From the sequence record NC_073068.1: a stretch of 44,476 nt of DNA, one strand, 5' to 3'. Made by a program: the position numbers and the translations under genes. The first letter of the stretch is position 1; each line of letters opens with the position of its first letter. The notes below the pieces were generated by a model. The model saw only the letters and a program-made list of their open reading frames with translations. It made no database searches and was not told the DNA's origin. Of this stretch, positions 5,844-40,781 are shown in pieces. Origin of the DNA: Escherichia phage vB_EcoD_Pubbukkers.

Positions 5844-5991
5844 TAGTGTGTCCTCGTTGTTGGTGTGCAACCAATATATGCAACCAATACGAGGATCGCA
5901 AGCGAATTTTGCGATTATTTTTATCGCTGATAATATTAGAAGCGTGAAGTCGAGCGGGTGGCCTGCTCTGCCACAATCCCAGGGGGATAGC

Positions 5992-10784: not shown

Positions 10785-11147
10785 ATGGCTAAAGCACCAC
10801 TCTTTACACTTGACCCTAAGCCGACCTTTAAGCTGCCGATTGAGATCCCGCGCCCAGGTGAGAACGAACCAGGCAAGATGACTTTTACCGTCCGCCACCG
10901 CCCGATCGACGAATTTTCGCAAACCATGCAGGACACCGAACGAAAGCTGTCGGAATATGACGACAATGACCCGGACGGCTTTAACGTTATGGTCGAGGCC
11001 ATCATGCACGTCGCGGAAGGCTGGAATCTGCCAGACGAATTTAACGCGGAGAACGTCCGGCGCCTGGTGGTCAACTATCCACGCGCGTTCGGGGTGTTCC
11101 ACACGTCGTACTATCTCGAACTGATGGGATTGCGTGAAAAAAACTAA
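10785..11147 (+). CDS. tail assembly chaperone (lambda gpG-like)
   Basis: 120 aa from ATG 10785 (MAKAPLF); acidic; ends with the slippery run GAAAAAAAC just before its stop; position between major tail and tape measure genes. Confidence 0.75.
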   Translation: MAKAPLFTLDPKPTFKLPIEIPRPGENEPGKMTFTVRHRPIDEFSQTMQDTERKLSEYDDNDPDGFNVMVEAIMHVAEGWNLPDEFNAENVRRLVVNYPRAFGVFHTSYYLELMGLREKN

Positions 11148-11461
11148 TTGAGGCGGCGCGACGCTTTTATGGCCCGCCGCCACCCTCCGAAGATTTAGCC
11201 GCGAGTTTATGGGGTGCAGCCCCTGAAGATGTTTGTCCGCCTGTTGCGCTATGGCCCGACAACGCGAAGGTAGTCGCAGTCTTCACAGATTGCTCCACGC
11301 AATGGCGCACCGGTTTTGGTGGCGCATACGGCATCGACTACGGCGTGCTGGAGTGGTTATTTAAGATGCACGGTATCGAAAACGAGCAGCGCGCGTTTAA
11401 AGATATCAAGCTAATGGAGCGAATCGCGCTTGATGAGATGGCGCAGCAGAACCCCGCATAA
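10785..11461 (+). CDS. tail assembly chaperone -1 frameshift fusion product (gpGT-like)
   Basis: The -1 frame is closed by TGA at 11135-11137 and opens exactly at the slippery heptamer A_AAA_AAC (11138-11144), then runs to TAA at 11459-11461 with no in-frame start codon near its beginning; a GGCGGCG/CGCCGCC hairpin (11152-11181) lies 8 nt downstream. Confidence 0.7.
11138..11181 (+). other. programmed -1 ribosomal frameshift site (slippery heptamer plus downstream stem-loop)
   Basis: A_AAA_AAC at 11138-11144 in the chaperone frame; inverted repeat GGCGGCG (11152-11158) / CGCCGCC (11175-11181) downstream. Confidence 0.65.
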
Positions 11462-11595
11462 TGAAGCGGGACAGGCGGGACGTCCCGTTTTGTCCCGCCT
11501 CTGTAAAACTGCATATCTACTCACTTCCACTGCATAAACTCAAAACGGGACAAGCGGGACGTCCCGCTTAGTCCCGCCCTGTAAATGTGCATACC

Positions 11596-11782
11596 TATGC
11601 AGTTTTATTGCATAAACTAAGCGGGACAAAAAGCGGGACAAACAAGGGGCGGGACAAAGCGGGACAGCACCCCGTCCCCGCCAGTGCTGCCGCGGTTTTC
11701 AGCCGATCGGGACAGCGGGACAGCACCCCAGTCTTTCAGACTAGACGGGGGTCAATGGCCCCCCTCGTCTGAGACTGAATAA
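11596..11782. repeat. copy 1 of a ~188-bp duplicated non-coding element (GCGGGACA iterons plus conserved stem-loop)
   Basis: Near-identical to 40076..40263; contains a TATGCA-gttttat-TGCATA palindrome, four tandem GCGGGACA units, two more after a divergent 26-bp segment, and the hairpin AGACGGGGG-loop-CCCCCCTCGTCT (11743-11770). Confidence 0.85.
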
Positions 11783-11845
11783 GGTTTGTTTTGAAATCGC
11801 TGATACAATATCCATCGGCAACTGCATAAAAAAGGGGACTGCATA

Positions 11846-14488
11846 ATGGCAGATCAGGCAGCAGGCATCACGCTAAAGGCTGATGTTGCACAAATCAGAA
11901 CGGCAAATACTGTGCTGGACTCCTTCGCACAGAAATCCGAGAACACAGAAAACAAGGTTAAGAAATTAAACGACACCCTCGGCAAATCCAAAAAGGTGAC
12001 GAGTGACGCCGCGGGCGGAATGGAAAAGCTGGCAAACGAATCGCAGCGCGCCGCCGATGGCATGACGAAACAGGAGCGACTCGCCAACAGGTTAGGCATG
12101 TCGACTAAAAACCTGGGCTTTGCCTCGCGTAACGCCGCATTCCAGTTACAGGATATCGCAGTTACGCTTGAGATGGGGATGCCGGTACACCGCGTTATGC
12201 TTCAGCAGTTACCGCAGCTAACTGGGGCGTTCGGTGGATTGGGTAACACTCTGCGTTATGTTGCTGGCTTCCTCGGTCCAGTTGGGATCGGCCTTGCTGC
12301 GGTAACGGCAACGTTAGGCGTGGGCGTAGCAATTACGTCCCGCGCAGAGAACCAGGTCGCAGCGCTTAACAAGACGCTGGCGCTGTCAGGTAACATTTCC
12401 GGCCTAACGGCAAACCAGATCCTGGTGCTATCCGAGAACGCCGAGCGCATGGGCGGATCATTCCGCAAGACGCGTGACACAATCCAGGCGCTGGCGGCGG
12501 CGGGTGTGAAAGCGGGGGCGGACTTCGGCGCGCTGGCGAAGGTTGTGAATGACTTCGCGAAGGCGTCTAATCAGCCGATCTCTGACGTGGTTGAATCCAT
12601 CTCAAAATTGTCGAACGACCCAGTGGGCGGACTGCGTGCGCTGGCGGATAAGTATCATGTCGTTACCGAGGCGCAGATCCAGCAGGTGCAATCGCTTGTA
12701 GATATGGGGCGTGAAACGGACGCGGTTGCTCTGGCTAACAAAACAGCCGCTGCGTCGTTCTCCAGCATGACCGATGAGGTAAAGTCCAACATGGGTACGC
12801 TTGAGCGGTCGATGAACGTAGTTACATCGGCAGCTAAATCTATGTGGGATGCCATCCTGGATGTGGGCCGCGCGCAGTCCTCGAATGAGTCCGAGATGAA
12901 AGCGCGTGAGTCCTTGCAGCGCATGACCACGGCGTACTATGCCGAGATGAGGGCGGTAAACGCTGCCGGTGGGGTGATGACCGAAGCGCAGAAAGCGCGT
13001 ATTAACATGCTTTACAGCGAACTGGTCGCCCAGGAAAAGGTAGTAGCGTCGCTCACCCTTCGCAACCGTGCCGAGCGAGACAGCGCCAGCGCCGCGGATG
13101 AAGCAGCAAAGGCGAACGAGGAGGCAAACCGCGCCGCCCGCGACCGCGCCGCGTTTGAGAAGGAGTACGCAACCAACGCGAAGCGGCGAGCCGACGAGAT
13201 CGCCCGCCTAAATTTGCTGAATAAGCGCGGTGTTATTAACGAGAAAGAACTAGCCGAGGCGGTGAAGCAGGTCAACGAGCGTTACAAAGACCCCGCGCCG
13301 AAGAAAGCGGCGGCAGTTCGAGTCGATGCCGGGCTGAAAATGCTGGAAGTCGCGCGAAGCGAATTAGCCCAGCTTCGTGAGTCTGGAAAGCAGATCGAAG
13401 CCAACGCATCGACGCAGACCCGCACGCAACGCGCGCAAGCGTCCCTGAACAAGCTGATTGCCGATAATGAGCAGTTAATCACCGCGAGCAAGGAGCGCGC
13501 ACTCACGGCAGCAGAAAAGCAGCAAACGGCGGCGTTCGAGGCGGTTAAATCGGTACGCGAGCAGATCGTCGAAGAAGCCAAATTGCTGGACGCGAAAGAG
13601 AAGCAGATCAAAGCACACGCCCAGGTCGATGCATTCATCAAGAACCAGAACGCCGAGCTAAAAGCCACCGCGGCGGGATATGCGCTTTCCACTCGCGAAG
13701 CGGCTAACCTGCGCGAAGAATTGCAGCTAATTGATCGCCTGAAGCGGGTGGGCGCTAACGATACCGATATTGATCTGGCGGTGTCTAAGCTGCGCGAAGT
13801 GCAGGAAGCACAGACCGGTGCTAACGCCTCGCTATGGGATGGCCTCAGCCGCGGGCTTAAGGATAGCGTTGATGAAATGGGTAACGGCTATACGCAGATG
13901 ACGTCACTCACAAAATTCACGTTCGGCGCTATGCAGGACACGATGAACGAGTTTTTCGAGACTGGCAAGCTGAACGCAAAAGATATGGTTAAGTCCATTC
14001 TGAGCGAATTAATAAAGCTGGCTACCTCGCAGGCATTCAAGTCCATCGTTAGCGCTTTCGGTGGCGACGGCGGCAAAAACGGATTGTTCGGCGCTATCTT
14101 CTCTGGCCTAACTAAGAATGCGGACGGAGGAGCGTACGCAGGGGGCAATCTCGCGGCCTATTCGGGGCAAGTGGTAAGCCAGCCCACCTTTTTCAGTTAC
14201 GGCGTCCAGGCGTTCGCAAAGGGCGCGGGATTGATGGGGGAGGCCGGACCAGAGGCCATCATGCCACTGAAGCGCGGCCCGGACGGCAAACTGGGCGTTG
14301 CCGCTGCCGGTGTAGGCGGAGGGATGATTGTAACGACCAACGTTAACATGGGGACCGGTAAGACGGATACCAGTGTTAGCGGTCCAGACCCGCGCACCGC
14401 GCAGGCGTTCGGAAAGCAAATCACCGAGTCGGTCAAGGCCGAGATCGTGAAGGCGACGAAACCGGGTGGTGTACTTTACAAACGATGA
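11846..14488 (+). CDS. tail tape measure protein
   Basis: 880 aa; long Ala/Gln/Glu-rich predicted helical protein with Gly-rich C-terminal region; lies between the G/GT chaperones and the minor tail genes. Confidence 0.88.
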   Translation: MADQAAGITLKADVAQIRTANTVLDSFAQKSENTENKVKKLNDTLGKSKKVTSDAAGGMEKLANESQRAADGMTKQERLANRLGMSTKNLGFASRNAAFQLQDIAVTLEMGMPVHRVMLQQLPQLTGAFGGLGNTLRYVAGFLGPVGIGLAAVTATLGVGVAITSRAENQVAALNKTLALSGNISGLTANQILVLSENAERMGGSFRKTRDTIQALAAAGVKAGADFGALAKVVNDFAKASNQPISDVVESISKLSNDPVGGLRALADKYHVVTEAQIQQVQSLVDMGRETDAVALANKTAAASFSSMTDEVKSNMGTLERSMNVVTSAAKSMWDAILDVGRAQSSNESEMKARESLQRMTTAYYAEMRAVNAAGGVMTEAQKARINMLYSELVAQEKVVASLTLRNRAERDSASAADEAAKANEEANRAARDRAAFEKEYATNAKRRADEIARLNLLNKRGVINEKELAEAVKQVNERYKDPAPKKAAAVRVDAGLKMLEVARSELAQLRESGKQIEANASTQTRTQRAQASLNKLIADNEQLITASKERALTAAEKQQTAAFEAVKSVREQIVEEAKLLDAKEKQIKAHAQVDAFIKNQNAELKATAAGYALSTREAANLREELQLIDRLKRVGANDTDIDLAVSKLREVQEAQTGANASLWDGLSRGLKDSVDEMGNGYTQMTSLTKFTFGAMQDTMNEFFETGKLNAKDMVKSILSELIKLATSQAFKSIVSAFGGDGGKNGLFGAIFSGLTKNADGGAYAGGNLAAYSGQVVSQPTFFSYGVQAFAKGAGLMGEAGPEAIMPLKRGPDGKLGVAAAGVGGGMIVTTNVNMGTGKTDTSVSGPDPRTAQAFGKQITESVKAEIVKATKPGGVLYKR

Positions 14489-29704: not shown

Positions 29705-29983
29705 CTATGCGACCAATTCAGCAACCAATAAATCGCAGTCGGATATGTTGTCGATAACGCGAACGTCAGCACCGCGGCGGGCCATTCGCTCATGTTCACG
29801 TACCTGGTGCGGCTTCGGTTTTCCTCCGGGGCGCTTCACTTCGACGAACACTATTTTGCCGTTGATGATAATAATCAGGTCGGGCGCACCTGCGCGCCCC
29901 TCCCATGCCAGTTTTCGGCAGAATCCGCCTACCTCTTTCACCCGTCGCATCAGGTGACTTTGAATCTTGCCTTCTGGTGTCAT
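29705..29983 (-). CDS. VRR-NUC domain nuclease
   Basis: 92 aa; PD-(D/E)xK-type core DLIIIINGKIVFVEVKRPGGKPKPHQ typical of VRR-NUC; start overlaps the polymerase stop. Confidence 0.7.
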   Translation of the reverse strand: MTPEGKIQSHLMRRVKEVGGFCRKLAWEGRAGAPDLIIIINGKIVFVEVKRPGGKPKPHQVREHERMARRGADVRVIDNISDCDLLVAELVA

Positions 29984-32900
29984 TACTTCCTGTACCTGTA
30001 CATGATGTCGCCTTCAGCGGCAAGCGGGAAGCCTTTCGCCCAAATAGGCAGGTCGCACATCAGCGCGCAAAGCTCCTCGGTCGTGTAGTCGTCGGTGTCC
30101 GGAACTTCGGTGATCAATTCATCGTGCACTGACAGGACGATTTCATATCCGGCAGCTTCAACGCCAGGCATGGACCACGCGAGGATATCGCGGCACAGCG
30201 CCTGTACGATGTTTTCCGTCAGTTTGCCGCCGTAGGTGTACTGGAACCCCCACTGGCGCGTCGTCTGATTCTCGCCCTGATATTTAATGCGGGTGCTGGT
30301 GCGCTTCTTGCCGGTGTCTTCGTCAATCTCGGTCGTGACCGACAGCGCGATGCCGGGGTAACTCATGATGCGCCCCGACGGCAACTCAATTTTCAACCAC
30401 CACCCCGCGGCGTTCGGGTCGTCGCGCTCCTCGTCAAAGGTTGGGTCGTGCTTCGCCTTCGTACGGACAATCTTGAGCGCTTTTCTACCGTCCGGGCGAA
30501 CGGTAGCGCCAGCCCAGTATGCTTTGCCCGGATTGCGTATTGCACACAACACCGCGTCCTCAAGCTCGGCCCAAAAGGCTACCGTCTTCGGGTGCGCCTC
30601 TCGCCACATGCGTTTAATCGCATCACACGTAAGCCATACGTTTTTCGGCAGTATGTAAGTCGGGCGCTCGTCCTTCTTGCCCGGCTTCGGCGGTCGCTTC
30701 GCTTCGTTAATGCGGGCGTACTCATAACCCCGTTTAGCCGCTGCCCAAATGTGATTGGGGAATGTGCCCTTCATGACGTCCGCCATCGCGTAAAGGTCGA
30801 GGCCCAGGTTTTTAGCGAACTGCAAGAACGCCGCGACGCCGCCACCATAGCCCAGGCCAAGCTCGCAGTTATGCGCCACCAGAAAACCAGACTTAGACGC
30901 AATAAGGAACCGGTTTCCGTCTTCCACATCAATCAGGTCGTAAACCGGCTCGCAATAGGTTAACTTCCCGTTCCAGTTCAGCAATGCGGGTAAGGGCTTC
31001 ATCGTACTTTCGCTGAAGCTCGGGCACGCTGCGCCGGTTACGGCAGTTTTCCGAACGGCTGACAAACCGAAGGTTTCCAGGCTCATAGTTGCTGTCTGTA
31101 TCGATCCGGTCCATTTCGAAGTCTGGATTATCCCAGCCGTCCAGCGTTTGAACGTAGAGAAGAAACGACCTTTTATCTCTCTGCCATTCGTCACATACGG
31201 CAATCCCACGACCGCCGTAGTTTTTATACCCTTTGGCGCGGGGGTTTGTCGTTCGTGATATTGCCGCTGACAGCCGGTTGAGCAACCGCGTTCTGTGCGC
31301 ATCGTCTGGCATTGCGTCATCGTAGCAAAAATACTGTTTACGATACCGCTTTGTCGCTTCAATTGCGCAGAGGTTGCATTGGGATGTTTTACCCCTTCGG
31401 ACGTTGTCATACCCGACGCGTCCTGGCATCGCTCCGCAATCACATTGGGCCAGCAGTTGTCTGTGCCCCTGTCGTTTTGGTAATTCGCGCAGGATAACCA
31501 GGCGTCCATACCTCTCGCCAGGGCGCGGGCCATCGTGCACCTGTCTGAAACGAGTTGCCTTGCCTCCTTCCATGAATGCGTCAAGATTTTGTGGTCTTCT
31601 GTCATCAAGACCCCGTCCACGTCTATCACTGGTTTCCACCCCATAAGGTGCGCGCCTTTTGTACTCACCCATTTTTCGCCGTTCCATACTTTATCCGTTG
31701 ATGTTACGGCCATAATATCCTTGAACCCGCCATCGGTCAATACTTGGGTATGGCGGTGCAAGCAAGCCTTCCCTATCTGGCGTAAGTCCTTGCGGTTAGC
31801 TTTAATGTAGTCCGGGTCCAGGCCGAACATCTTACCGGCAGTCTCACAATAGATATCACGACCGGCCTTAAACACCATTAGCGCGGTTTTCTCGCCAGCG
31901 ATCCAGGCAAGTCCACGCCCTTCCACGTTGGAGTAGTCCGCTACGACAAACTTCTTGCCCTTAGCCGGGATAATGCACCCGCGAACGGTCGAGGCTGTTA
32001 GCTTCGATATGTCGTACGCCCAGTGTGCGGTCCCGCGTAGCAGGGAATTGATGCCGTTGGTGAGCATGTGCGACCGGACCCAAAAAGCAACGTCGCTCTC
32101 GCCTTCGCGGCGCTTAATCTTCCCTTCGTGATCGTCGCTATACTCGCCGCGTGCCAGGTTTTGAGGCTGGAAGCCTTTACCGGCCCAGCGTAGCGTGCGC
32201 TTTGCCCCTCCATACTGAAGACAACCTCGGCGGCGACCGTCGGCGGATAGGCCATTAACGAGCGGATTGTACTTAGTCGACGCCGTGGATGACGCACCGA
32301 GGCGCATCTCGATAAGCACTTTGCCCTCGTCGGGGAAGTCTGGATCTTCCAGCAGGTCGTTAAGCGTGGATTTCTGCGCATTGTGGATTGTGAACGCAGG
32401 CGCGAGGTCGCGCAGCGCTGGCAGGAAGTCATTGCCGGTCAGCTTACCGCCGAAGCGCTCCCAGGCTTCTTCCTTCAATTCTTCCTTATGCGCCTGCACC
32501 GCTTTGATCGCGGCGTTCGCCAGGTCAACGTCCACATAGAAGCCGCGGTCATTGATCAACTGGTCGATAAGCAGGATTTCATCTTCCTTCGGGGTATTAC
32601 CCCAGTCCGGTATGCGCCAGTAGACCTCCCGCATCGCGATAATATCCAGCGCGGCATATCGCAGAAATTTGGCCCATTCTTCAGGGTGAGTCTCGCGAGT
32701 GTAGCGGCGGATTTTGTAAGTCTTAGGGGTAGGCTTGCAGAATCGTTTAATCAGCGCCTTGCCTGCCTTATCCTTCGCGTGCTCTGCGTCAACGCCCAGC
32801 ACCTGACACTGCATATCGAGGCTGCCCGGCAGCGCGTGCCGAAAGGCCATAATCATGGTATCTTCGATCTGGCTTACCGGCAGGTCGATTCCCCACTTTT

Positions 32901-33171
32901 CACGGATAACCAGGCGGTCAAACAGGAGGCCGTTAGCCATCACGATTTTTGCTTTCTTGCGGGATACCTGACGGAGCGCCTTGCGCAGTTCACGCGGCAT
33001 TGTTGGTGATTCAGTGGCATCCCATGTCTGCACGCGGCCTTCGTCGATGGCGTAGGTGCAAATCATGATCTCGGTGGTTGGGTGCTCTGCGTAGGCGTAC
33101 GCCCCTACTTTCTTCAGGTCCACCCCGCTAAATGTCTCGGTATCGAGAAACAGGCGTTCAAAGTTTTTCAT
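29983..33171 (-). CDS. DNA polymerase I family (3'-5' exonuclease plus polymerase) interrupted by an intein
   Basis: 1062 aa; Exo I FLDTETFS; motif A VADYSNVEGRGLAW; motif B split as RQIGKA | intein | CELGLGYGGG; motif C VLSVHDELITEV. Intein residues 470-768 carry block A (CLHRHTQVLTDGG), block B (ILTHSW), block F (VYDLIDVEDGNRFLIA) and block G (FLVAHN followed by +1 Cys). Confidence 0.85.
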   Translation of the reverse strand: MKNFERLFLDTETFSGVDLKKVGAYAYAEHPTTEIMICTYAIDEGRVQTWDATESPTMPRELRKALRQVSRKKAKIVMANGLLFDRLVIREKWGIDLPVSQIEDTMIMAFRHALPGSLDMQCQVLGVDAEHAKDKAGKALIKRFCKPTPKTYKIRRYTRETHPEEWAKFLRYAALDIIAMREVYWRIPDWGNTPKEDEILLIDQLINDRGFYVDVDLANAAIKAVQAHKEELKEEAWERFGGKLTGNDFLPALRDLAPAFTIHNAQKSTLNDLLEDPDFPDEGKVLIEMRLGASSTASTKYNPLVNGLSADGRRRGCLQYGGAKRTLRWAGKGFQPQNLARGEYSDDHEGKIKRREGESDVAFWVRSHMLTNGINSLLRGTAHWAYDISKLTASTVRGCIIPAKGKKFVVADYSNVEGRGLAWIAGEKTALMVFKAGRDIYCETAGKMFGLDPDYIKANRKDLRQIGKACLHRHTQVLTDGGFKDIMAVTSTDKVWNGEKWVSTKGAHLMGWKPVIDVDGVLMTEDHKILTHSWKEARQLVSDRCTMARALARGMDAWLSCANYQNDRGTDNCWPNVIAERCQDASGMTTSEGVKHPNATSAQLKRQSGIVNSIFATMTQCQTMRTERGCSTGCQRQYHERQTPAPKGIKTTAVVGLPYVTNGREIKGRFFSTFKRWTAGIIQTSKWTGSIQTATMSLETFGLSAVRKTAVTGAACPSFSESTMKPLPALLNWNGKLTYCEPVYDLIDVEDGNRFLIASKSGFLVAHNCELGLGYGGGVAAFLQFAKNLGLDLYAMADVMKGTFPNHIWAAAKRGYEYARINEAKRPPKPGKKDERPTYILPKNVWLTCDAIKRMWREAHPKTVAFWAELEDAVLCAIRNPGKAYWAGATVRPDGRKALKIVRTKAKHDPTFDEERDDPNAAGWWLKIELPSGRIMSYPGIALSVTTEIDEDTGKKRTSTRIKYQGENQTTRQWGFQYTYGGKLTENIVQALCRDILAWSMPGVEAAGYEIVLSVHDELITEVPDTDDYTTEELCALMCDLPIWAKGFPLAAEGDIMYRYRK
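30868..31764 (-). mobile_element. intein inserted in DNA polymerase motif B
   Basis: 299 codons between extein residues ...RQIGKA and CELGLGYG...; starts with Cys, ends with His-Asn followed by Cys; canonical Hint blocks at both ends; the central ~180 codons show no endonuclease motifs in the polymerase frame. Confidence 0.8.
30929..31687 (-). CDS. HNH homing endonuclease encoded in the -1 frame inside the polymerase intein
   Basis: 252-aa ORF offset by one nucleotide from the polymerase frame; contains GRLVILREL...CDCG...SQCNLC, KGYKNYGGRGIAVCDEW and DRIDTDSNYEPGNLRFVSRSENCRNR (HNH core). Likely true start at Met39 (31573); no strong RBS seen. Confidence 0.6.
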   Translation of the reverse strand: MERRKMGEYKRRAPYGVETSDRRGRGLDDRRPQNLDAFMEGGKATRFRQVHDGPRPGERYGRLVILRELPKRQGHRQLLAQCDCGAMPGRVGYDNVRRGKTSQCNLCAIEATKRYRKQYFCYDDAMPDDAHRTRLLNRLSAAISRTTNPRAKGYKNYGGRGIAVCDEWQRDKRSFLLYVQTLDGWDNPDFEMDRIDTDSNYEPGNLRFVSRSENCRNRRSVPELQRKYDEALTRIAELEREVNLLRAGLRPD

Positions 33172-33396: not shown

Positions 33397-34173
33397 TTAA
33401 CGGCGGCGACGTTTACGTGGCGCTTCGTCTTCGTCGTCGTCCTCATCTTCGTCATCGCGTGGCTTACGACGTTTACGTGGTGCTTCATCTTCGTCGTCGT
33501 CATCGCGGCGCTTGGACTTTTTGGACTTGCGCGGCTTGTCGTCTTCGTCATCGTCATCACGACGTTTTGACTTTTTGGACTTACGCGGGCTTTCGTCTTC
33601 GTCATCGTCGCCCAGGTCTTCGTCGGAACATGAAGACCCGCCACCTCCGAAGGCTTCGCCGTCTTCACGGAATCGCAGACCCAGCAAGCCTGCCCCGAGT
33701 CCCTTGCCGTTGGTATTGTTCCACGCCCAAATATCAAGGGACACGTTGCAATAACAACCGGAGTAGATCTCCTGGCCTTCAATCTCGTCGCCTTCTACGG
33801 TCAGACCTTGTTCAGTCTGCTTCTCGCCGAGTGACGTTTGAATGATAGGCTGTTTGAACGATTTGGCGTTGATATACAACATGCCTTCGAATTCTTCGGT
33901 CACTTCGTCGCGCTCGTCACCGTCGCGGACTGCGCATTCCTTCGAATCCTGGGCGTAGTGGCGGTCCATCCACTTATCGGCATTCTTCTCGGATTTCAGC
34001 TTGTCGGTGAGCACTGCGCGCGCTGCCGCTTCCACTTTGTCCACCTGCGGATCTTCTTTATCCAGAAGAATCACGGCACGGTATGCCGGTTTTTGCCCAT
34101 CCTGTTTAGGGGTATCACGTTCCCAAATTTTAAGGAAGCATACGCGCACATTTTTCAGGTTGACTTTAGCCAT
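33397..34173 (-). CDS. ssDNA-binding protein-like (DUF2815-like N-domain) with alternating acidic/basic repeat tail
   Basis: 258 aa from ATG 34173 (MAKVNLKNVRVCF) with RBS GAGGAA; C-terminal ~80 aa are repeats of D/E-rich blocks followed by PRKSKKSKRR-like blocks, ending RKRRRR; encoded by imperfect tandem DNA repeats. Confidence 0.5.
   Translation of the reverse strand: MAKVNLKNVRVCFLKIWERDTPKQDGQKPAYRAVILLDKEDPQVDKVEAAARAVLTDKLKSEKNADKWMDRHYAQDSKECAVRDGDERDEVTEEFEGMLYINAKSFKQPIIQTSLGEKQTEQGLTVEGDEIEGQEIYSGCYCNVSLDIWAWNNTNGKGLGAGLLGLRFREDGEAFGGGGSSCSDEDLGDDDEDESPRKSKKSKRRDDDDEDDKPRKSKKSKRRDDDDEDEAPRKRRKPRDDEDEDDDEDEAPRKRRRR
33408..33610. repeat. imperfect tandem repeats within the SSB-like gene 3' region
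   Basis: Two ~35-bp units (cgacgtttacgtggYgcttcRtcttcgtcgtcgtc) and two ~45-bp units (ttggactttttggacttRcgcgg...tcgtcttcgtcatcgtc) encoding the charged repeat tail. Confidence 0.6.
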
Positions 34174-36417: not shown

Positions 36418-36933
36418 TTAATCTTCCAGTTCGAAATAGGTTTCGACGATTTCTTTTAGCTCTTCGTGGAAGTCTTCGACGTCGTCATCTTCCAGCTTGG
36501 CGATTGATTTGATCTCGAACGATTCCAGCAGGTTGTCGAATTCGTCGTTCGCATCGTCGTCATCGCCACCGGCGATAATCGCGGCATACTGTTTGATTTC
36601 GTCGCGCATCTCTGCCAGCGGGTCGGCATCTTTCTTACCTTTGCCTTTCGCCGGTGCTTTCTTAGACTTAGCCGGTTTTTCGTCTTCGGCATCGTCGTCG
36701 TCATCTTCTACGACTTCTTTTTTAGCCTTACCTTTCGCCGGGGATTTTTTAGATTTAGCCGGTTTTTCGTCTTCGGCGTCATCGTCGTCATCTTCGACAA
36801 CTTCTTTTTTGGCCTTAGACGGCTTCTTATCTTCCTGTTTACCAACGGCAGCGCCAACGGTTTCATAATGCTTTGCAATGGTTTCCAGTGCTACTACGCC
36901 GCGAGTGATCAGGTTTACGATTTGCTCAAACAT
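36418..36933 (-). CDS. acidic/basic repeat protein (first gene of the leftward early operon)
   Basis: 171 aa from ATG 36933 (MFEQIVNLITRG) with RBS GGAG; two tandem ~28-aa repeats (KKEVVEDDDDDAEDEKPAKSKKxPAKGKxKK) and an acidic C-terminus; has its own promoter and terminator. Confidence 0.6.
   Translation of the reverse strand: MFEQIVNLITRGVVALETIAKHYETVGAAVGKQEDKKPSKAKKEVVEDDDDDAEDEKPAKSKKSPAKGKAKKEVVEDDDDDAEDEKPAKSKKAPAKGKGKKDADPLAEMRDEIKQYAAIIAGGDDDDANDEFDNLLESFEIKSIAKLEDDDVEDFHEELKEIVETYFELED
36635..36814. repeat. tandem ~90-bp repeat (2 units) inside the acidic-protein gene
   Basis: Units 36635-36727 and 36728-36814 are imperfect copies (ttacctttcgccgg...agccggtttttcgtcttcggc...atcgtcgtcatcttc...cttcttttttRgcc). 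Confidence 0.7.
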
Positions 36934-37335: not shown

Positions 37336-37665
37336 ATGAATGTAAACGACGCAATCGAAATGTTAACGAAGACTGTTTGCAGTGAGACTAGCCGGTCCTG
37401 GGCTTATACCGATGCCGTTGGGGAGGTGTTATTTGAAATCGAACGACTGCGCAGTGTCGAAAAAGAATTACGCGCCAGGCTGGAATTGCTCAACGGTACG
37501 GCGGCCAGCAAGCTGCAAAAGCACAATGAAGAAATGGAAGAATACAAAAAGCAGGTTATCCGTTTGCGCGCCGAGGGCAAATCCTGGGCGATGATTGCCG
37601 AGTTGACCGGAATTAATCAGAGCACAGTGCGCTCCTGGGTACGCAATAATAAAACTTCTAAGTAA
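37336..37665 (+). CDS. HTH DNA-binding protein (putative transcriptional regulator)
   Basis: 109 aa; C-terminal helix-turn-helix-like GKSWAMIAELTGINQSTVRSWVR; first gene of the rightward arm; perfect -35 TTGACA at 37276-37281 upstream. Confidence 0.55.
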   Translation: MNVNDAIEMLTKTVCSETSRSWAYTDAVGEVLFEIERLRSVEKELRARLELLNGTAASKLQKHNEEMEEYKKQVIRLRAEGKSWAMIAELTGINQSTVRSWVRNNKTSK

Positions 37666-37675
37666 GGCCACGGCA

Positions 37676-39940
37676 ATGAGCTTAATTAAATTCGCTGTAA
37701 CACGACCCGCTAAAAAAGGCGAAAAAGCCAGGGCGGAAAACTTCCAGATGACTACCGAAGAGTTTTTCGAATTTATCAATGATGCGAAAGAAATCTCCTC
37801 GGTGCATATCAACAAGACGGAAGATAAAGCCGAGTATGCGCGCCGCAAGCGTAAGGCCGATGGCATCGTAGCGTATACCAGTGACGGCTTACGCCGCAAG
37901 ACCAGTGCGGTGGACCGCTCGATCCTGTTCTTCGATATTGACCGTACCGACACCCGCACCCTACGCCGCTGCCGTAAGGCGTTCATCGACGCGGGACTGG
38001 AGCACGTCTTCCACACCACAACCGGCGACCGCCATCCGCTGAAAGGCGGCACGCGTTGCGCTCGATTCCTGGTACTCACGGACAAGCCTGTACCGGCTGA
38101 AGACCTGGGCCGTGTCCAGTATGCGCTATTACACCAACTGGGTCTGTCAGATGTGGACTTCGACGATTGCACGAAAGACACAAACCGCCTTATGTACCTG
38201 CCACACCAGCAATCGGTTGTTAAGTGTCACTACGGCAAACGCGCCCGCGTCCGTCGTCTTCTTCGCCTGGCTGATAAGCTGGGAATGGAAAAAGAGGAAG
38301 TCCGCCGCGAACTGACCCAGGGCGACGACGCAGTGGCAGACGGCATTCTGGACTGGTGCTTCCAGGCAGGATTCGAGGAGTTATCTTCCGGGCGGGGCTA
38401 TGAAGTGCCGTGCCCTAACGAACACCTACACAGCGGCGAAGGGTCCACCGCTATTATGGTCAAGGATGGCGAGATCCGTTTCAAGTGTATGCACACCGGC
38501 AACGAGTGTTGCTCGGAACTGAATAGACACCAGCACCTGGCGCTACGTCTTATCGGGATCCCGGACCACCTGAACGTCGAACCGCACAACATGTCACGTA
38601 AGCAAATCGCCGCCATCCTCCCAGGGCTGGACGACGAGGAAGTCGAATCATTATATGAACATATTGTTGATGCGGTTGGCGACGGCGAAGAATACGGCGT
38701 GTGCACCGATGCGGATCTGGATAACGAGCCGGTTGCGCTGTTCAGTAAGCACGACCCGATCATAGAAGGCCTGGTCAACTTCAAATCGACCTGGTATCTT
38801 GCTGGCGAGTCGAACATCGGTAAATCGTTCTACGTGCTGGGGCAAATGGGTGCGGTTGCCGCGGGGATTCCGTTCGGTGGCGCGAAGGTCGTCCAGTCTC
38901 ATTGCTTCTATTTCGACGCGGAAGGTGGCGAAGCCTCTAACCAGCGCAAAGAAGCATTGCAGATTAAATATGAGCACGACCTGGACAAGCTGCACATTAT
39001 CGATCTGCAATCACGCGGCTGGGATATCACCAGCAAATCCGGCTTGCGTGAAGTTATCAGCTTCATCAACCGCACCGCTAACGGCGAGCCGGTTGGCCTG
39101 GTGGCGTTCGACTCACTCAACCAGACTGTCGCGCTGCGGTCCGCCGATGCCAAACCGTTCGACGAGAACAACGCCAGCGATATGGGTGAAGTGGTCAAAG
39201 CGCTGAAGGCCATCGCGGAAAATACAGGCGGCAGCGCGGGCGTCATCCACCACCCGGCGAAGGGTGCAAACGGCAGCAGAACCCCCCGAGGGTCCGGCGC
39301 GCTGCATGGTGCTGTCGATTCTGCGTTCTTCCTGGAACAGCCGGACGACAACCAGCCCGGACAATTGAACCTGTATCATGAGAAGTCACGTAACGGCATC
39401 AAGCAAGCGCCGCGTGGCTTCGTCCTGCTCAAGTGCAAGGTGAAGGTGGATCTCCGCAAGTCCGAGGCGTTCGAGGCGCACCAGTCCACCAGCACCGGGC
39501 CAGACTTCGGCGATGTGGTTGCCGGTTGGGACGTCAAGCCAATTGCCTCCACGCCACGCGACGAGACTCTTTACCTCGTACCGGTCGCCCTGGCACCGTT
39601 CGCCATCGAGCAGGCGAAGTCCGCGGGCAAGGCCGCAGTTAAGGAAGAGAACGCCGCGGGACCGCGCAACGAAAAAGAGAAAGTGCTTTATGCGGCCCTG
39701 GAAAAACTGATGGAAGATAACCCGGACCATACTGGTTTCAGTAAATCGGCAATTGTCCGCCAGGCGGGACTCGCGAAGGGTGGTACTTCGACGAAGGCAA
39801 TCGACGATATGGTCGAGCGCGGCGTACTCGGTTTTTATACCGATCCGCACACCGGGGCCATCTATGGGTCGTCGAATATCGTCATCAAAACGAACATACC
39901 AATCACGCTTTCGGCGACCGATGATGATTTAAAAGATTAA
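37676..39940 (+). CDS. DNA primase/helicase (AEP prim-pol-like N-domain plus RecA-like ATPase)
   Basis: 754 aa; N-terminal ILFFDIDRTD (acidic D-x-D motif as in archaeo-eukaryotic primases); Cys/His cluster (CPNEHLHSGEG...FKCMHTGNECC); Walker A GESNIGKSF and VAFDSLNQ Walker B-like segment. Confidence 0.75.
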   Translation: MSLIKFAVTRPAKKGEKARAENFQMTTEEFFEFINDAKEISSVHINKTEDKAEYARRKRKADGIVAYTSDGLRRKTSAVDRSILFFDIDRTDTRTLRRCRKAFIDAGLEHVFHTTTGDRHPLKGGTRCARFLVLTDKPVPAEDLGRVQYALLHQLGLSDVDFDDCTKDTNRLMYLPHQQSVVKCHYGKRARVRRLLRLADKLGMEKEEVRRELTQGDDAVADGILDWCFQAGFEELSSGRGYEVPCPNEHLHSGEGSTAIMVKDGEIRFKCMHTGNECCSELNRHQHLALRLIGIPDHLNVEPHNMSRKQIAAILPGLDDEEVESLYEHIVDAVGDGEEYGVCTDADLDNEPVALFSKHDPIIEGLVNFKSTWYLAGESNIGKSFYVLGQMGAVAAGIPFGGAKVVQSHCFYFDAEGGEASNQRKEALQIKYEHDLDKLHIIDLQSRGWDITSKSGLREVISFINRTANGEPVGLVAFDSLNQTVALRSADAKPFDENNASDMGEVVKALKAIAENTGGSAGVIHHPAKGANGSRTPRGSGALHGAVDSAFFLEQPDDNQPGQLNLYHEKSRNGIKQAPRGFVLLKCKVKVDLRKSEAFEAHQSTSTGPDFGDVVAGWDVKPIASTPRDETLYLVPVALAPFAIEQAKSAGKAAVKEENAAGPRNEKEKVLYAALEKLMEDNPDHTGFSKSAIVRQAGLAKGGTSTKAIDDMVERGVLGFYTDPHTGAIYGSSNIVIKTNIPITLSATDDDLKD

Positions 39941-40015
39941 ATTTTGCGCGCATTGGTCGCCGTTATGGGAATCCCCATATCGGTAAAAGATTAAATTTTG
40001 CGCGCATTGGTTGCC
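39930..40015. repeat. pair of 32-bp direct repeats (31/32 identical) overlapping the primase stop
   Basis: taaaagattaaattttgcgcgcattggtYgcc at 39930-39961 and 39984-40015, 54-bp period; each ends in an ATTGGTYGCC motif. Confidence 0.8.
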
Positions 40016-40075
40016 ATTTTGCGTGCTTTTAGCTGGTCGTATTGGTTGCCGTGTAGTGTAAATATAATGAATAGT

Positions 40076-40263
40076 TATGCAGTTTTATTGCATAAAGTAA
40101 GCGGGACAAAAAGCGGGACAGACCAGGGGCGGGACAAAGCGGGACAGCACCCCTGTCCCGCCCCGGATGACGCGGCCTGGCGAGGAGCGGGACAGCGGGA
40201 CAGCACCCCAGTCTTTCAGACTAGACGGGGGGTCTGGCACCCCCCTCGTCTGAGACTGAATAA
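40076..40263. repeat. copy 2 of the ~188-bp duplicated element (GCGGGACA iterons plus conserved stem-loop)
   Basis: Aligns with 11596-11782: same TATGCA...TGCATA palindrome, four plus two GCGGGACA units and the same stem (loop sequence differs). Confidence 0.85.
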
Positions 40264-40475
40264 AATCCGGGATTGCATAACGCACGGCAACAAGATGCGG
40301 AGTGCGGTCGTCGATGAACTAGGCAACCAACGCGAGATGCATTATGCTGAGTGAAAAATTCAGTTTGCAGTTGCAGCAGATAGCGATCAACTTTTTCATG
40401 CGCGTGATTGATATTGGTTGCATTCGTCCTGCCAGGGTGTTAGATTGGTTGCATATCAAACGAAGGAGGGCATTC

Positions 40476-40781
40476 ATGAAGGCTTTAATCTGGAATTACA
40501 CATCAGCGGTCGCAGCGCTCTATGAAGCGAAGGCGCTGAACGGCAACGTAGACCGTGCGCGCCAGTTTGCGACACTGGCACACCAGTCAATCATGTGTGC
40601 GCTAGACGATATGGACGCCAGCATGGATGACCTGGGTCCGCTGCGTAAGGCAATCCATGAATACGCGCTGGCATTCTCCCGTGAGCGCCTGGCTTATCGC
40701 TTCGGTATTGGCGAGAAGGCAGTGACAAACGTAGCCAGGATTAAAGCCCAGCGTGAGCTATTCGCCCAGCTTGCGAAATAA
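40476..40781 (+). CDS. hypothetical protein
   Basis: 101 aa from ATG 40476 (MKALIWNYTS) with RBS AAGGAGGG; the ORF-track start at 40344 is rejected. Confidence 0.55.
   Translation: MKALIWNYTSAVAALYEAKALNGNVDRARQFATLAHQSIMCALDDMDASMDDLGPLRKAIHEYALAFSRERLAYRFGIGEKAVTNVARIKAQRELFAQLAK

Follow-up and report, generated by a model that had tools for sequence, protein, structure and literature searches.

A repeat island in the tail operon of a Dhillonvirus coliphage as a probable second copy of its iteron-type replication origin

The 44,476-nucleotide (nt) sequence from Escherichia phage vB_EcoD_Pubbukkers (NC_073068.1; one strand, 5' to 3'), referred to here as the window, carries a non-coding iteron island, region A (11462–11845, + strand), between the stop codon of the tail chaperone T frame and the start codon of the tape-measure gene. 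Sequence comparison indicates that region A probably duplicates, in expanded form, the iteron-type replication origin of the phage; the presumed primary origin is region B (core at 40068–40263, + strand), which follows the primase-helicase gene. The most suitable reading of region A, by analogy with oriR of the Bacillus subtilis siphophage SPP1, is that of a second origin or a site bound by the initiator. The original prediction, made from the sequence of the window, had likened the island to a replication origin, to a site where a DNA-binding protein of the phage attaches (the primase/helicase being one of the candidates) or to a packaging or recombination site. The first two ideas now have comparative support from the array beside the helicase gene, from the co-variation of iterons with helicase subfamilies and from a predicted C-terminal winged helix in the helicase, all of which are consistent with such a function; the packaging or recombination idea gained no support.

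Iteron arrays at two loci of the genome

Reading of the sequence placed the TAA of the chaperone T frame at 11459–11461 and the tape-measure ATG at 11846, and the gene-free gap proposed between them was borne out. Within 11461–11845, GGGAC(A/G) occurred in 10 forward and 4 reverse copies, in agreement with the earlier count of about ten forward units plus reverse ones. Enrichment of this unit over shuffled sequence could be confirmed only in part. Genome-wide, GGGACR was not enriched (47 observed vs 44 expected), but its copies were clustered, with 14 of the 47 lying within the 385 base pairs (bp) of region A (0.41 expected, Poisson P 3e-17) and 7 within 40068–40263, and the true repeat unit is longer. 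This unit, GCGGGACA, was found 17 times in the window against 2.0 times in shuffles, none of the 100 shuffles reaching 17, and 14 of the 17 copies were located in regions A and B (7 in each). The word CGGGAC was present at 14 sites in region A, where 0.35 were expected (Poisson P 3e-18), and at 7 sites in region B (Poisson P 9e-10). TGCATAA, several copies of which had been noticed in the island, occurred 13 times against 5.4 expected, with four copies in region A and three in region B. The segment shared by regions A and B is present at only these two loci of the genome, which are approximately 28 kb apart and tied together by 86% paralogy. The recurrence of the 3' part of the island near 40.1 kb could be confirmed for the 195 bp at 11588–11782 against 40068–40263; its description as almost identical was too strong, the identity being 86.4%.

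Region A consists of three tandem modules, each with an AT-rich box ending in (T/C)GCATAA and an iteron set that starts 4–5 nt later. Modules A1 and A2 represent a tandem duplication of 79 nt (11464–11542 and 11543–11620) and share a head-to-head quartet of the form GCGGGACA-nn-CGGGAC/GTCCCG-nnnn-GTCCCGC. In module A1 (11464–11542, + strand), the quartet, GCGGGACA-GG-CGGGAC/GTCCCG-TTTT-GTCCCGC, occupies 11466–11498 with a palindrome core at 11477–11486 and is followed by a spacer ending in TGCATAA at 11531–11537. Module A2 (11543–11620, + strand) contains forward iterons at 11546 and 11555, reverse iterons at 11561 and 11571, a palindrome at 11556–11565 and, after the quartet, the AT-rich box TATGCAGTTTTATTGCATAA (11596–11615, + strand; A+T 70% at most). 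Of the two GGGACGTCCC palindromes described earlier, the second had been placed correctly, while the first lies at 11477–11486 and not at 11476–11485. Repeat alignment paired module A3 (11588–11782, + strand) with the region B core, its paralogue at 86% identity. The module carries direct iterons at 11622, 11634, 11650 and 11660, a degenerate inverted iteron at 11673–11678 and direct iterons at 11708 and 11716, with a long imperfect inverted repeat next to them. Folding and alignment located this hairpin, with its GC-rich tip, at 11729–11777 (no strand assigned). The GC-rich stem-loop reported at 11743–11770 was indeed present (11744–11770), but it is only the core of the longer structure.

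The 3' end of the island carries transcription and translation signals on the + strand. Alignment revealed an invariant, extended -10 promoter-like element, TGATACAAT, at 11801–11809, which is 37 nt 5' of the tape-measure ATG, followed by CGGCAAC at 11816–11822 and a Shine-Dalgarno sequence, AGGGG, at 11833–11837. Region A would also hold a promoter and ribosome-binding site for the tape-measure gene, and the position of TGATACAAT suggests that the distal tail genes may have their own promoter inside the island.

The region B module starts 128 bp past the primase-helicase stop codon and its iterons start 162 bp past it. The iterons are forward at 40102, 40114, 40130 and 40140, reverse at 40155, and again forward at 40188 and 40196, and folding placed a hairpin at 40209–40258 (no strand assigned). 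The AT-rich box follows the pattern GAATAGTTATGCA...TGCATAA and lies in a candidate DNA-unwinding element (40057–40098, no strand assigned; 80% A+T) that abuts the first iteron; among the 40-bp windows of the genome, only one is richer in A+T. Whereas the box of region B (80% A+T) touches iterons on one side only, the boxes of region A (64–70%) lie between head-to-head quartets; in distant contigs such as L058, an AT-rich region is clearly flanked by iterons of opposite orientation.

A different repeat was observed at the border of region B. A 38-nt direct repeat, TAAAAGATTAAATTTTGCGCGCATTGGT(C/T)GCC, is found at 39930–39967 and 39984–40021 (92% identity, 54-nt spacing), where it overlaps the final helicase codons and the beginning of region B, and each copy contains TTGGT(C/T)GC. 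This second motif, TTGGT(T/C)GC, occurs on the + strand at 39953, 40007, 40042, 40414, 40445, 37138, 34230/34246 and 24843, and as GCAACCAA at 5867/5880, 24831, 26747/26764, 29709/29721 and 40323. The sites form close pairs, are intergenic and are mostly oriented along local transcription; relatives carry TTGGCTGC or CAGCCAAC at equivalent places around their origins. The motif looks like a phage-specific promoter or regulator site.

A 501-base query around the island matched 157 phage records, almost all of them Escherichia, Shigella or Sodalis phages of the genus Dhillonvirus, including HK578, SO-1, EK99P-1 and several BASEL phages, and the window itself belongs to this genus (HK578/SO-1-like E. 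coli siphophages). The island was kept in 148 of the 157 records (at least 80% of the query covered) with 79–99% identity. In St162, phiEap-2 and Jersey, the T and tape-measure genes abut without an island, which makes the island an insertion relative to these phages; the question of conservation or insertion, left to comparison with relatives, is thus answered on both counts. When 29 distinct copies of A and B were compared, almost no change was seen in the six iterons or in either hairpin stem, and the AT box was nearly invariant, while the spacers, the hairpin loop and a 35-nt segment specific to A or to B varied. These diagnostic segments indicate that the duplication predates the genus. 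The last iteron pair exists in two variants, and in approximately 9 of 11 genomes the A and B copies agree in the variant they carry, which points to some gene conversion between them.

Several GenBank records of Dhillonvirus start or end in or near region A, namely CHD5UKE2 (NC_073059.1), PNS1, BEK2-2 and EcoIv6a_Kente. In the CHD5UKE2 record, the same 127 bases stand at the start and at the end, resembling an overlap left by the assembler. The 187-bp A/B repeat probably breaks assemblies at region A; since the breakpoints differ, these ends are unlikely to be physical genome ends. An unannotated 35-kb record, MG065648.1 (Campylobacter phage A144, host C. jejuni), was 96.8% identical over the island and is probably a contaminant or carries a mis-assigned host.

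Co-variation of the iterons with the primase-helicase gene

The IMG/VR database was scanned for two GCGGGACA units 2–8 nt apart. The scan returned Dhillonvirus loci, chance matches and many unrelated contigs (GC 46–69%) with 7–21 CGGGAC sites within 400 bp. In the unrelated contigs, direct and inverted iterons surround AT-rich stretches and a GC-rich perfect palindrome whose sequence is contig-specific, and by this layout the clusters look like origins. The primase-helicase was the only protein of the window with homologues beside these clusters, and the cluster was always at the 3' end of its gene; the helix-turn-helix (HTH) protein of the window had no homologue near them. A dose-response comparison was made by profile search for the helicase in non-Dhillonvirus IMG/VR loci chosen only by the iteron pair. 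Loci were graded by their CGGGAC sites per 400 bp: the 3' end of a helicase gene lay in the cluster at 16 of 29 with 7 or more, at 2 of 31 with 4–6 and at none of 41 with 3 or fewer. Two high-GC contigs, L061 and L064, have dense CGGGAC clusters with no helicase homologue in the DNA examined; the former has 21 sites per 400 bp with GGGACA/TGTCCC variants and the latter a tandem array of GGACAGCCGGACAG-like units, and both may be unrelated repeat systems.

In the reverse test, loci were fetched by helicase homology alone (37–99% identity) with an 8-sequence alignment, a 13-sequence alignment having been too diverse for a pattern. An alignment of the tail chaperone was too divergent to fetch tape-measure neighbourhoods and was not used. 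Most of the helicase-fetched loci carried a dense repeat cluster straight after the stop codon, with a word that differed by subfamily, so that seven iteron types corresponded to seven helicase subfamilies. These were CGGGACA in Dhillonvirus and a sister lineage of 68% identity, ACTCGCAA in a 49% group, GGGGAGA in St162 and FSL SP-031, CGGACAA in phiEap-2, and TCCGACA, AGGGATA and GGGGAT in one further helicase subfamily each. No comparable iteron word was found at loci L155–158, L160, L164 and L169, no iteron cluster was found in the Jerseyvirus Jersey, and a search of a plasmid collection returned no informative relative.

The scaffold around these words is constant. Its 5' part comprises a box of GAATAGTTATGCA...(GAATAGTTATGCA or TGCATAA), 3–4 direct iterons, one inverted iteron and two more, and its 3' part comprises a long hairpin, TTATTCA or GAATAA, ACGGCA(A/G)C and then a promoter. 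A hairpin counterpart of different sequence is present 3' of the iterons in every helicase subfamily; the hairpins were folded one sequence at a time because automatic alignment across subfamilies recovered only the 6-pair GC tip. A constant architecture in which the recognition word changes alongside the adjacent replication protein argues for co-evolution of initiator and iterons. In the head-module intergenic region of phiEap-2 (L308, approximately 11480–11900), a dense GGAATAA/TTATTCC array in both orientations was also observed, distinct from its CGGACAA iterons.

Second sites could be followed beyond the genus. In the 68% sister lineage, region A lies just 5' of the tape-measure gene, where the N-terminus of the tape-measure protein is 57% identical, and the hairpin shows a compensatory change from TAGACG/CGTCTG to TGGACG/CGTCCT. 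In the ACTCGCAA lineage, at least four contigs carry two clusters of their own iteron per genome, one of them after the helicase gene. The second cluster is a 277-bp paralogue of 69% identity, located in the portal-to-capsid region, where a head-morphogenesis gene and an Rz-like gene flank it. Judged from these sequences, the second site is lineage-specific and, where present, has the iteron of its own genome and a late-operon location. Since the ACTCGCAA lineage also has a paralogous late-operon cluster, both sites appear to track the same specificity.

The protein encoded next to region B, the presumed initiator, is a primase-helicase of 754 amino acids (37676–39940, + strand) with a primase-like N-terminal part and an AAA_25/RSF1010 RepA-like core at residues 357–531. 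Pfam AAA_25 matched residues 357–531 (1.3e-19), PHROGs assigned a replicative helicase-primase and its primase families matched residues 16–177. The full-length AlphaFold2 model (pLDDT 72.5) had the RSF1010 RepA hexameric helicase as its best structural match, which Foldseek reached via 1nlf and 1g8y (E 7e-11 to 9e-11, TM 0.66–0.70), and a RecA-like fold was also among the best structural matches of the helicase core. The protein further has a predicted C-terminal winged-helix domain (residues 661–754; 39656–39937, + strand), which is the candidate iteron reader. Identity in this domain was 25–36% between iteron groups and 60–95% within the CGGGACA group, while the helicase core retained 53–69% between groups. 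We think that the winged helix reads the iterons, and it is favoured because of its analogy with the Rep initiator of the pathogenicity islands (SaPIs) carried by Staphylococcus aureus; a phmmer search against all Protein Data Bank chains gave no SaPI Rep match at E<=1.

Alternative explanations and the remaining window

According to the favoured reading, the primase-helicase would read the 7–8-bp iteron (G)CGGGACA, most likely via its C-terminal winged helix, and would assemble on the iterons, direct as well as head-to-head. Opening of the AT-rich TTATGCA...TGCATAA box beside them would follow, with the protein loading itself as the replicative helicase, and synthesis would be primed, possibly at the conserved long hairpin, as by primase at the ssi hairpins of RSF1010 oriV. 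The hairpin may thus be a priming signal like ssiA/ssiB.

Several observations weigh against this reading. St162 and phiEap-2 have a single cluster each, which indicates that a second site is not generally required. The AT box of region A is weaker than that of region B (70% vs 80% A+T), and the transcription signals in region A may have a share in its conservation, which is likely owed in part to the tape-measure promoter. GC skew tracked the direction of transcription and was uninformative on the origin, and no experimental binding or origin-activity data for any Dhillonvirus could be found in the literature. The variability of the C-terminal domain is not specific proof of iteron reading, because the N-terminal part of the helicase was equally divergent, and comparison of the Dhillonvirus C-terminal domain with those of distant helicases that share CGGGACA was not significant (hhalign probability 2%). 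The small HTH protein encoded just 5' of the helicase gene (37336–37665, + strand; HTH_23/sigma-70 region 4-like) is an alternative candidate reader. Its homologues (49–82% identity) were found only in the CGGGACA group of the close family and in none of the other groups, by which it could be the iteron reader in Dhillonvirus. Against the HTH protein in this role, that of HK578 is only 49% identical while the HK578 iterons are unchanged, and distant CGGGACA-bearing contigs have no HTH homologue.

In the main variant of the favoured reading, region A might bind the initiator without firing. It would then act as a fork barrier that makes replication pass from the circle-to-circle to the concatemer (rolling-circle) mode, or else as a partner for looping or handcuffing that raises or curbs the activity of region B, as crr does in P4. 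The iterons of region A are twice as many as those of region B and include two tight head-to-head quartets, its AT box is the weaker one, second sites lie in the late operon in two lineages, and a model of this kind, with gp38 at oriR, exists for SPP1 (PMC6316719). Pure binding would, however, have no need of the AT box, the long hairpin or CGGCAAC, which are as strictly conserved in A as in B, and the second site of the ACTCGCAA lineage likewise retains similarity over 277 bp, beyond its iterons. Region A in fact retains the whole core (AT box, 4+1+2 iterons, hairpin and CGGCAAC) and adds the two quartets. Because the AT box, hairpin and CGGCAAC are kept as strictly as the iterons, we infer from sequence that a firing second origin is preferable to a pure barrier or binding site, which we consider unlikely. 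Less probable again is that region A serves transcription control of the tail operon, with the hairpins as terminators or attenuators, a promoter for the tape-measure and distal tail genes, and GGGACA repeats as operators for a regulator such as the HTH protein (37336–37665). The invariant TGATACAAT stands 37 nt 5' of the tape-measure ATG, a sigma-70-like promoter directly follows the region B equivalent in relatives, HTH homologues are limited to the CGGGACA group, and rho-independent terminators are annotated here in the HK578 and PTXU06 records. These annotations could not be upheld. A scan of 11000–12200 for intrinsic terminators found no + strand site, as no T-run follows the hairpins, and its sole candidate was on the minus strand at 11487–11467. 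Moreover, the repeat type follows the helicase gene in very distant contigs that have no HTH homologue, and in HK578 the iterons stay unchanged beside a diverged HTH protein. A promoter and an origin can coexist, which makes this explanation partly complementary to a second origin.

Least probable of these explanations, and very improbable, is that region A represents a neutral or selfish duplicate of origin DNA, serves packaging (as a pac site) or recombination, or encodes a structured RNA or a small protein. Neutrality is hard to reconcile with a position and parts that are fixed in 148 records and also in the sister lineage with its 57% identical tape-measure N-terminus. The termini of several GenBank records fall within or close to the island, as a pac site might produce, but at differing positions, one record has the 127-bp assembly overlap, and the repeat follows the helicase and not the terminase. 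An RNA fold z-score of -7.3 would suit a structured RNA, but a scan of the whole window against Rfam 15 returned no match at the gathering score, and the iterons occur in both orientations in other phages. The open reading frame (ORF) at 11587–11772 (61 amino acids) is open in 12 of 13 distinct relatives. However, its variable columns by codon position numbered 24/21/15, the third position being the least variable, the overlapping minus-strand ORF was open in 13 of 13 relatives, and neither ORF had a PHROGs match. The ORF was accordingly rejected as a protein gene, and its earlier interpretation as a by-product of the repeats held. Five other small ORFs were without codon-position signal or family match, and relatives differ by single-base indels. 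Host DnaA boxes were also considered for the TTATGCA/TGCATAA box and rejected, since TTWTNCACA (at most 1 mismatch) occurred 59 times against 56.7 expected, with no clustering in A or B.

The gene map of the window agrees with those of JLBYU60 and SO-1. Structural genes occupy the + strand from 56 to approximately 23.6 kb, replication genes the minus strand up to 37.1 kb, and from 37336 onwards the HTH gene, the 754-amino-acid primase-helicase gene, small genes and lysis genes follow on the + strand. The DNA polymerase ORF (29983–33171, minus strand) is continuous over 1062 amino acids and contains a same-strand inner ORF of 252 amino acids (30929–31687). The JLBYU60 polymerase has 763 amino acids, and SO-1 annotates the same 1062-amino-acid gene with a 'type I self-splicing intron' and an HNH endonuclease; an intein would be as compatible with the uninterrupted frame as an intron. 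Families of direct repeats of 30–87 nt, rich in GTCGTC/TTCGTC, lie within coding regions on the minus strand at 33407–33612 and 36463–36826. The encoded low-complexity repeats are acidic and basic, and a tandem duplication of 87 nt at 36624–36797 belongs to these families.

Comparison with known systems

Both regions are already marked in the record of Sodalis phage SO-1 (NC_013600) as repeat_region 'region A' (11214–11597) and 'region B' (40178–40657), with a note on direct, inverted and palindromic repeats and on similarity to region B, and with a further remark that opens with 'possible'. Literature searches on Dhillonvirus promoters and origins and on SO-1 returned no origin description and no analysis of regions A and B, and a literature string search for GCGGGACA returned unrelated primer matches only. 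To our knowledge, neither Dhillonvirus nor its Guernseyvirinae-like relatives have a described replication origin. The present analysis offers as predictions the primase-helicase as initiator, GCGGGACA as its recognition word and two origin loci, and the seven iteron types paired with seven C-terminal domain variants provide a natural specificity series. Direct testing would be possible, since the BASEL collection includes Dhillonviruses and these grow on E. coli K-12. If region A is truly a second origin or fork barrier, the theta-to-sigma switch proposed for SPP1 oriR would become testable in easily engineered E. coli phages. Annotation of the island with hypothetical proteins or terminators should be avoided, and the 187-bp A/B repeat may explain the assembly breaks in Dhillonvirus genomes.

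In SPP1, oriL lies in the initiator gene and oriR in a gap of the late operon, both having shared direct repeats by an AT-rich unwinding element, and the same initiator is thought to bind both; gp38 at oriR has been proposed to stall the fork and trigger concatemer synthesis (PMC6316719). The window resembles this arrangement in having two distant loci with the same repeat, one by the initiator gene and one interrupting the late structural operon, and the second site of the ACTCGCAA lineage is in a similar place, between portal/head-morphogenesis and scaffold genes. The systems differ in that SPP1 uses a separate origin binder (gp38), a loader (gp39) and a DnaB-type helicase (gp40) with host primase, whereas in Dhillonvirus primase, winged helix and RepA-like helicase appear to be fused in one polypeptide. 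The two systems have unrelated repeat sequences, and the second site of Dhillonvirus is between the tail chaperone and tape-measure genes. It is conceivable, though on balance doubtful, that a paralogous initiator-binding origin in the late operon is a recurrent, selected design of lytic siphophages (Dhillonvirus, the ACTCGCAA group and SPP1), which would time the circle-to-concatemer switch or couple replication to late expression, with the copies kept alike by gene conversion.

The SaPI Rep/PriRep proteins are self-loading helicase initiators, sometimes fused to a primase, that bind by a C-terminal winged helix to iterons of 5–8 bp; these occur in 6–12 or more copies in both directions, directly 3' of rep and on either side of an AT-rich region (PMC9371898). 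The iterons bound by SaPI Rep are penta- or hexanucleotides (PMC9371898). The Dhillonvirus system is similar in its clustered short iterons, in the cluster directly 3' of the helicase ORF (in region B, in 16 of 29 dense clusters and in most subfamilies), in the presence of a C-terminal winged helix and in the co-variation of iteron and initiator. In contrast, its ATPase core has a RecA fold of the AAA_25/RSF1010 RepA-like type, so that it is not a member of the SaPI Rep family, and SaPIs have one ori, not two.

The oriV of RSF1010 (IncQ) contains 3.5 iterons of 20 bp bound by a separate RepC, with ssiA and ssiB hairpins on opposite strands and a separate primase. The helicase core of the window is structurally closest to RepA, and the logic of iterons, an AT-rich stretch and a hairpin as a possible priming signal is shared, whereas the Dhillonvirus iterons have 7–8 bp and 7–15 copies, each module has one long hairpin, and the activities are presumably in one protein. 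The alpha protein of satellite phage P4 is a fused primase-helicase with a C-terminal DNA-binding domain that binds octamer iterons at ori and crr. This matches the Dhillonvirus combination of a fused primase-helicase with iterons at two separate loci. The P4 helicase, however, belongs to superfamily 3 (D5-like), ori and crr are approximately 4.5 kb apart, crr not being a complete copy of ori, and the P4 iterons (TGTTCACC) are unrelated. In sum, the SO-1 repeat annotation, an iteron origin beside a self-loading initiator and a second origin in the late region are already known, while new examples of this known kind of element are provided by the particular protein architecture and by the dual sites that co-vary in E. 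coli phages.

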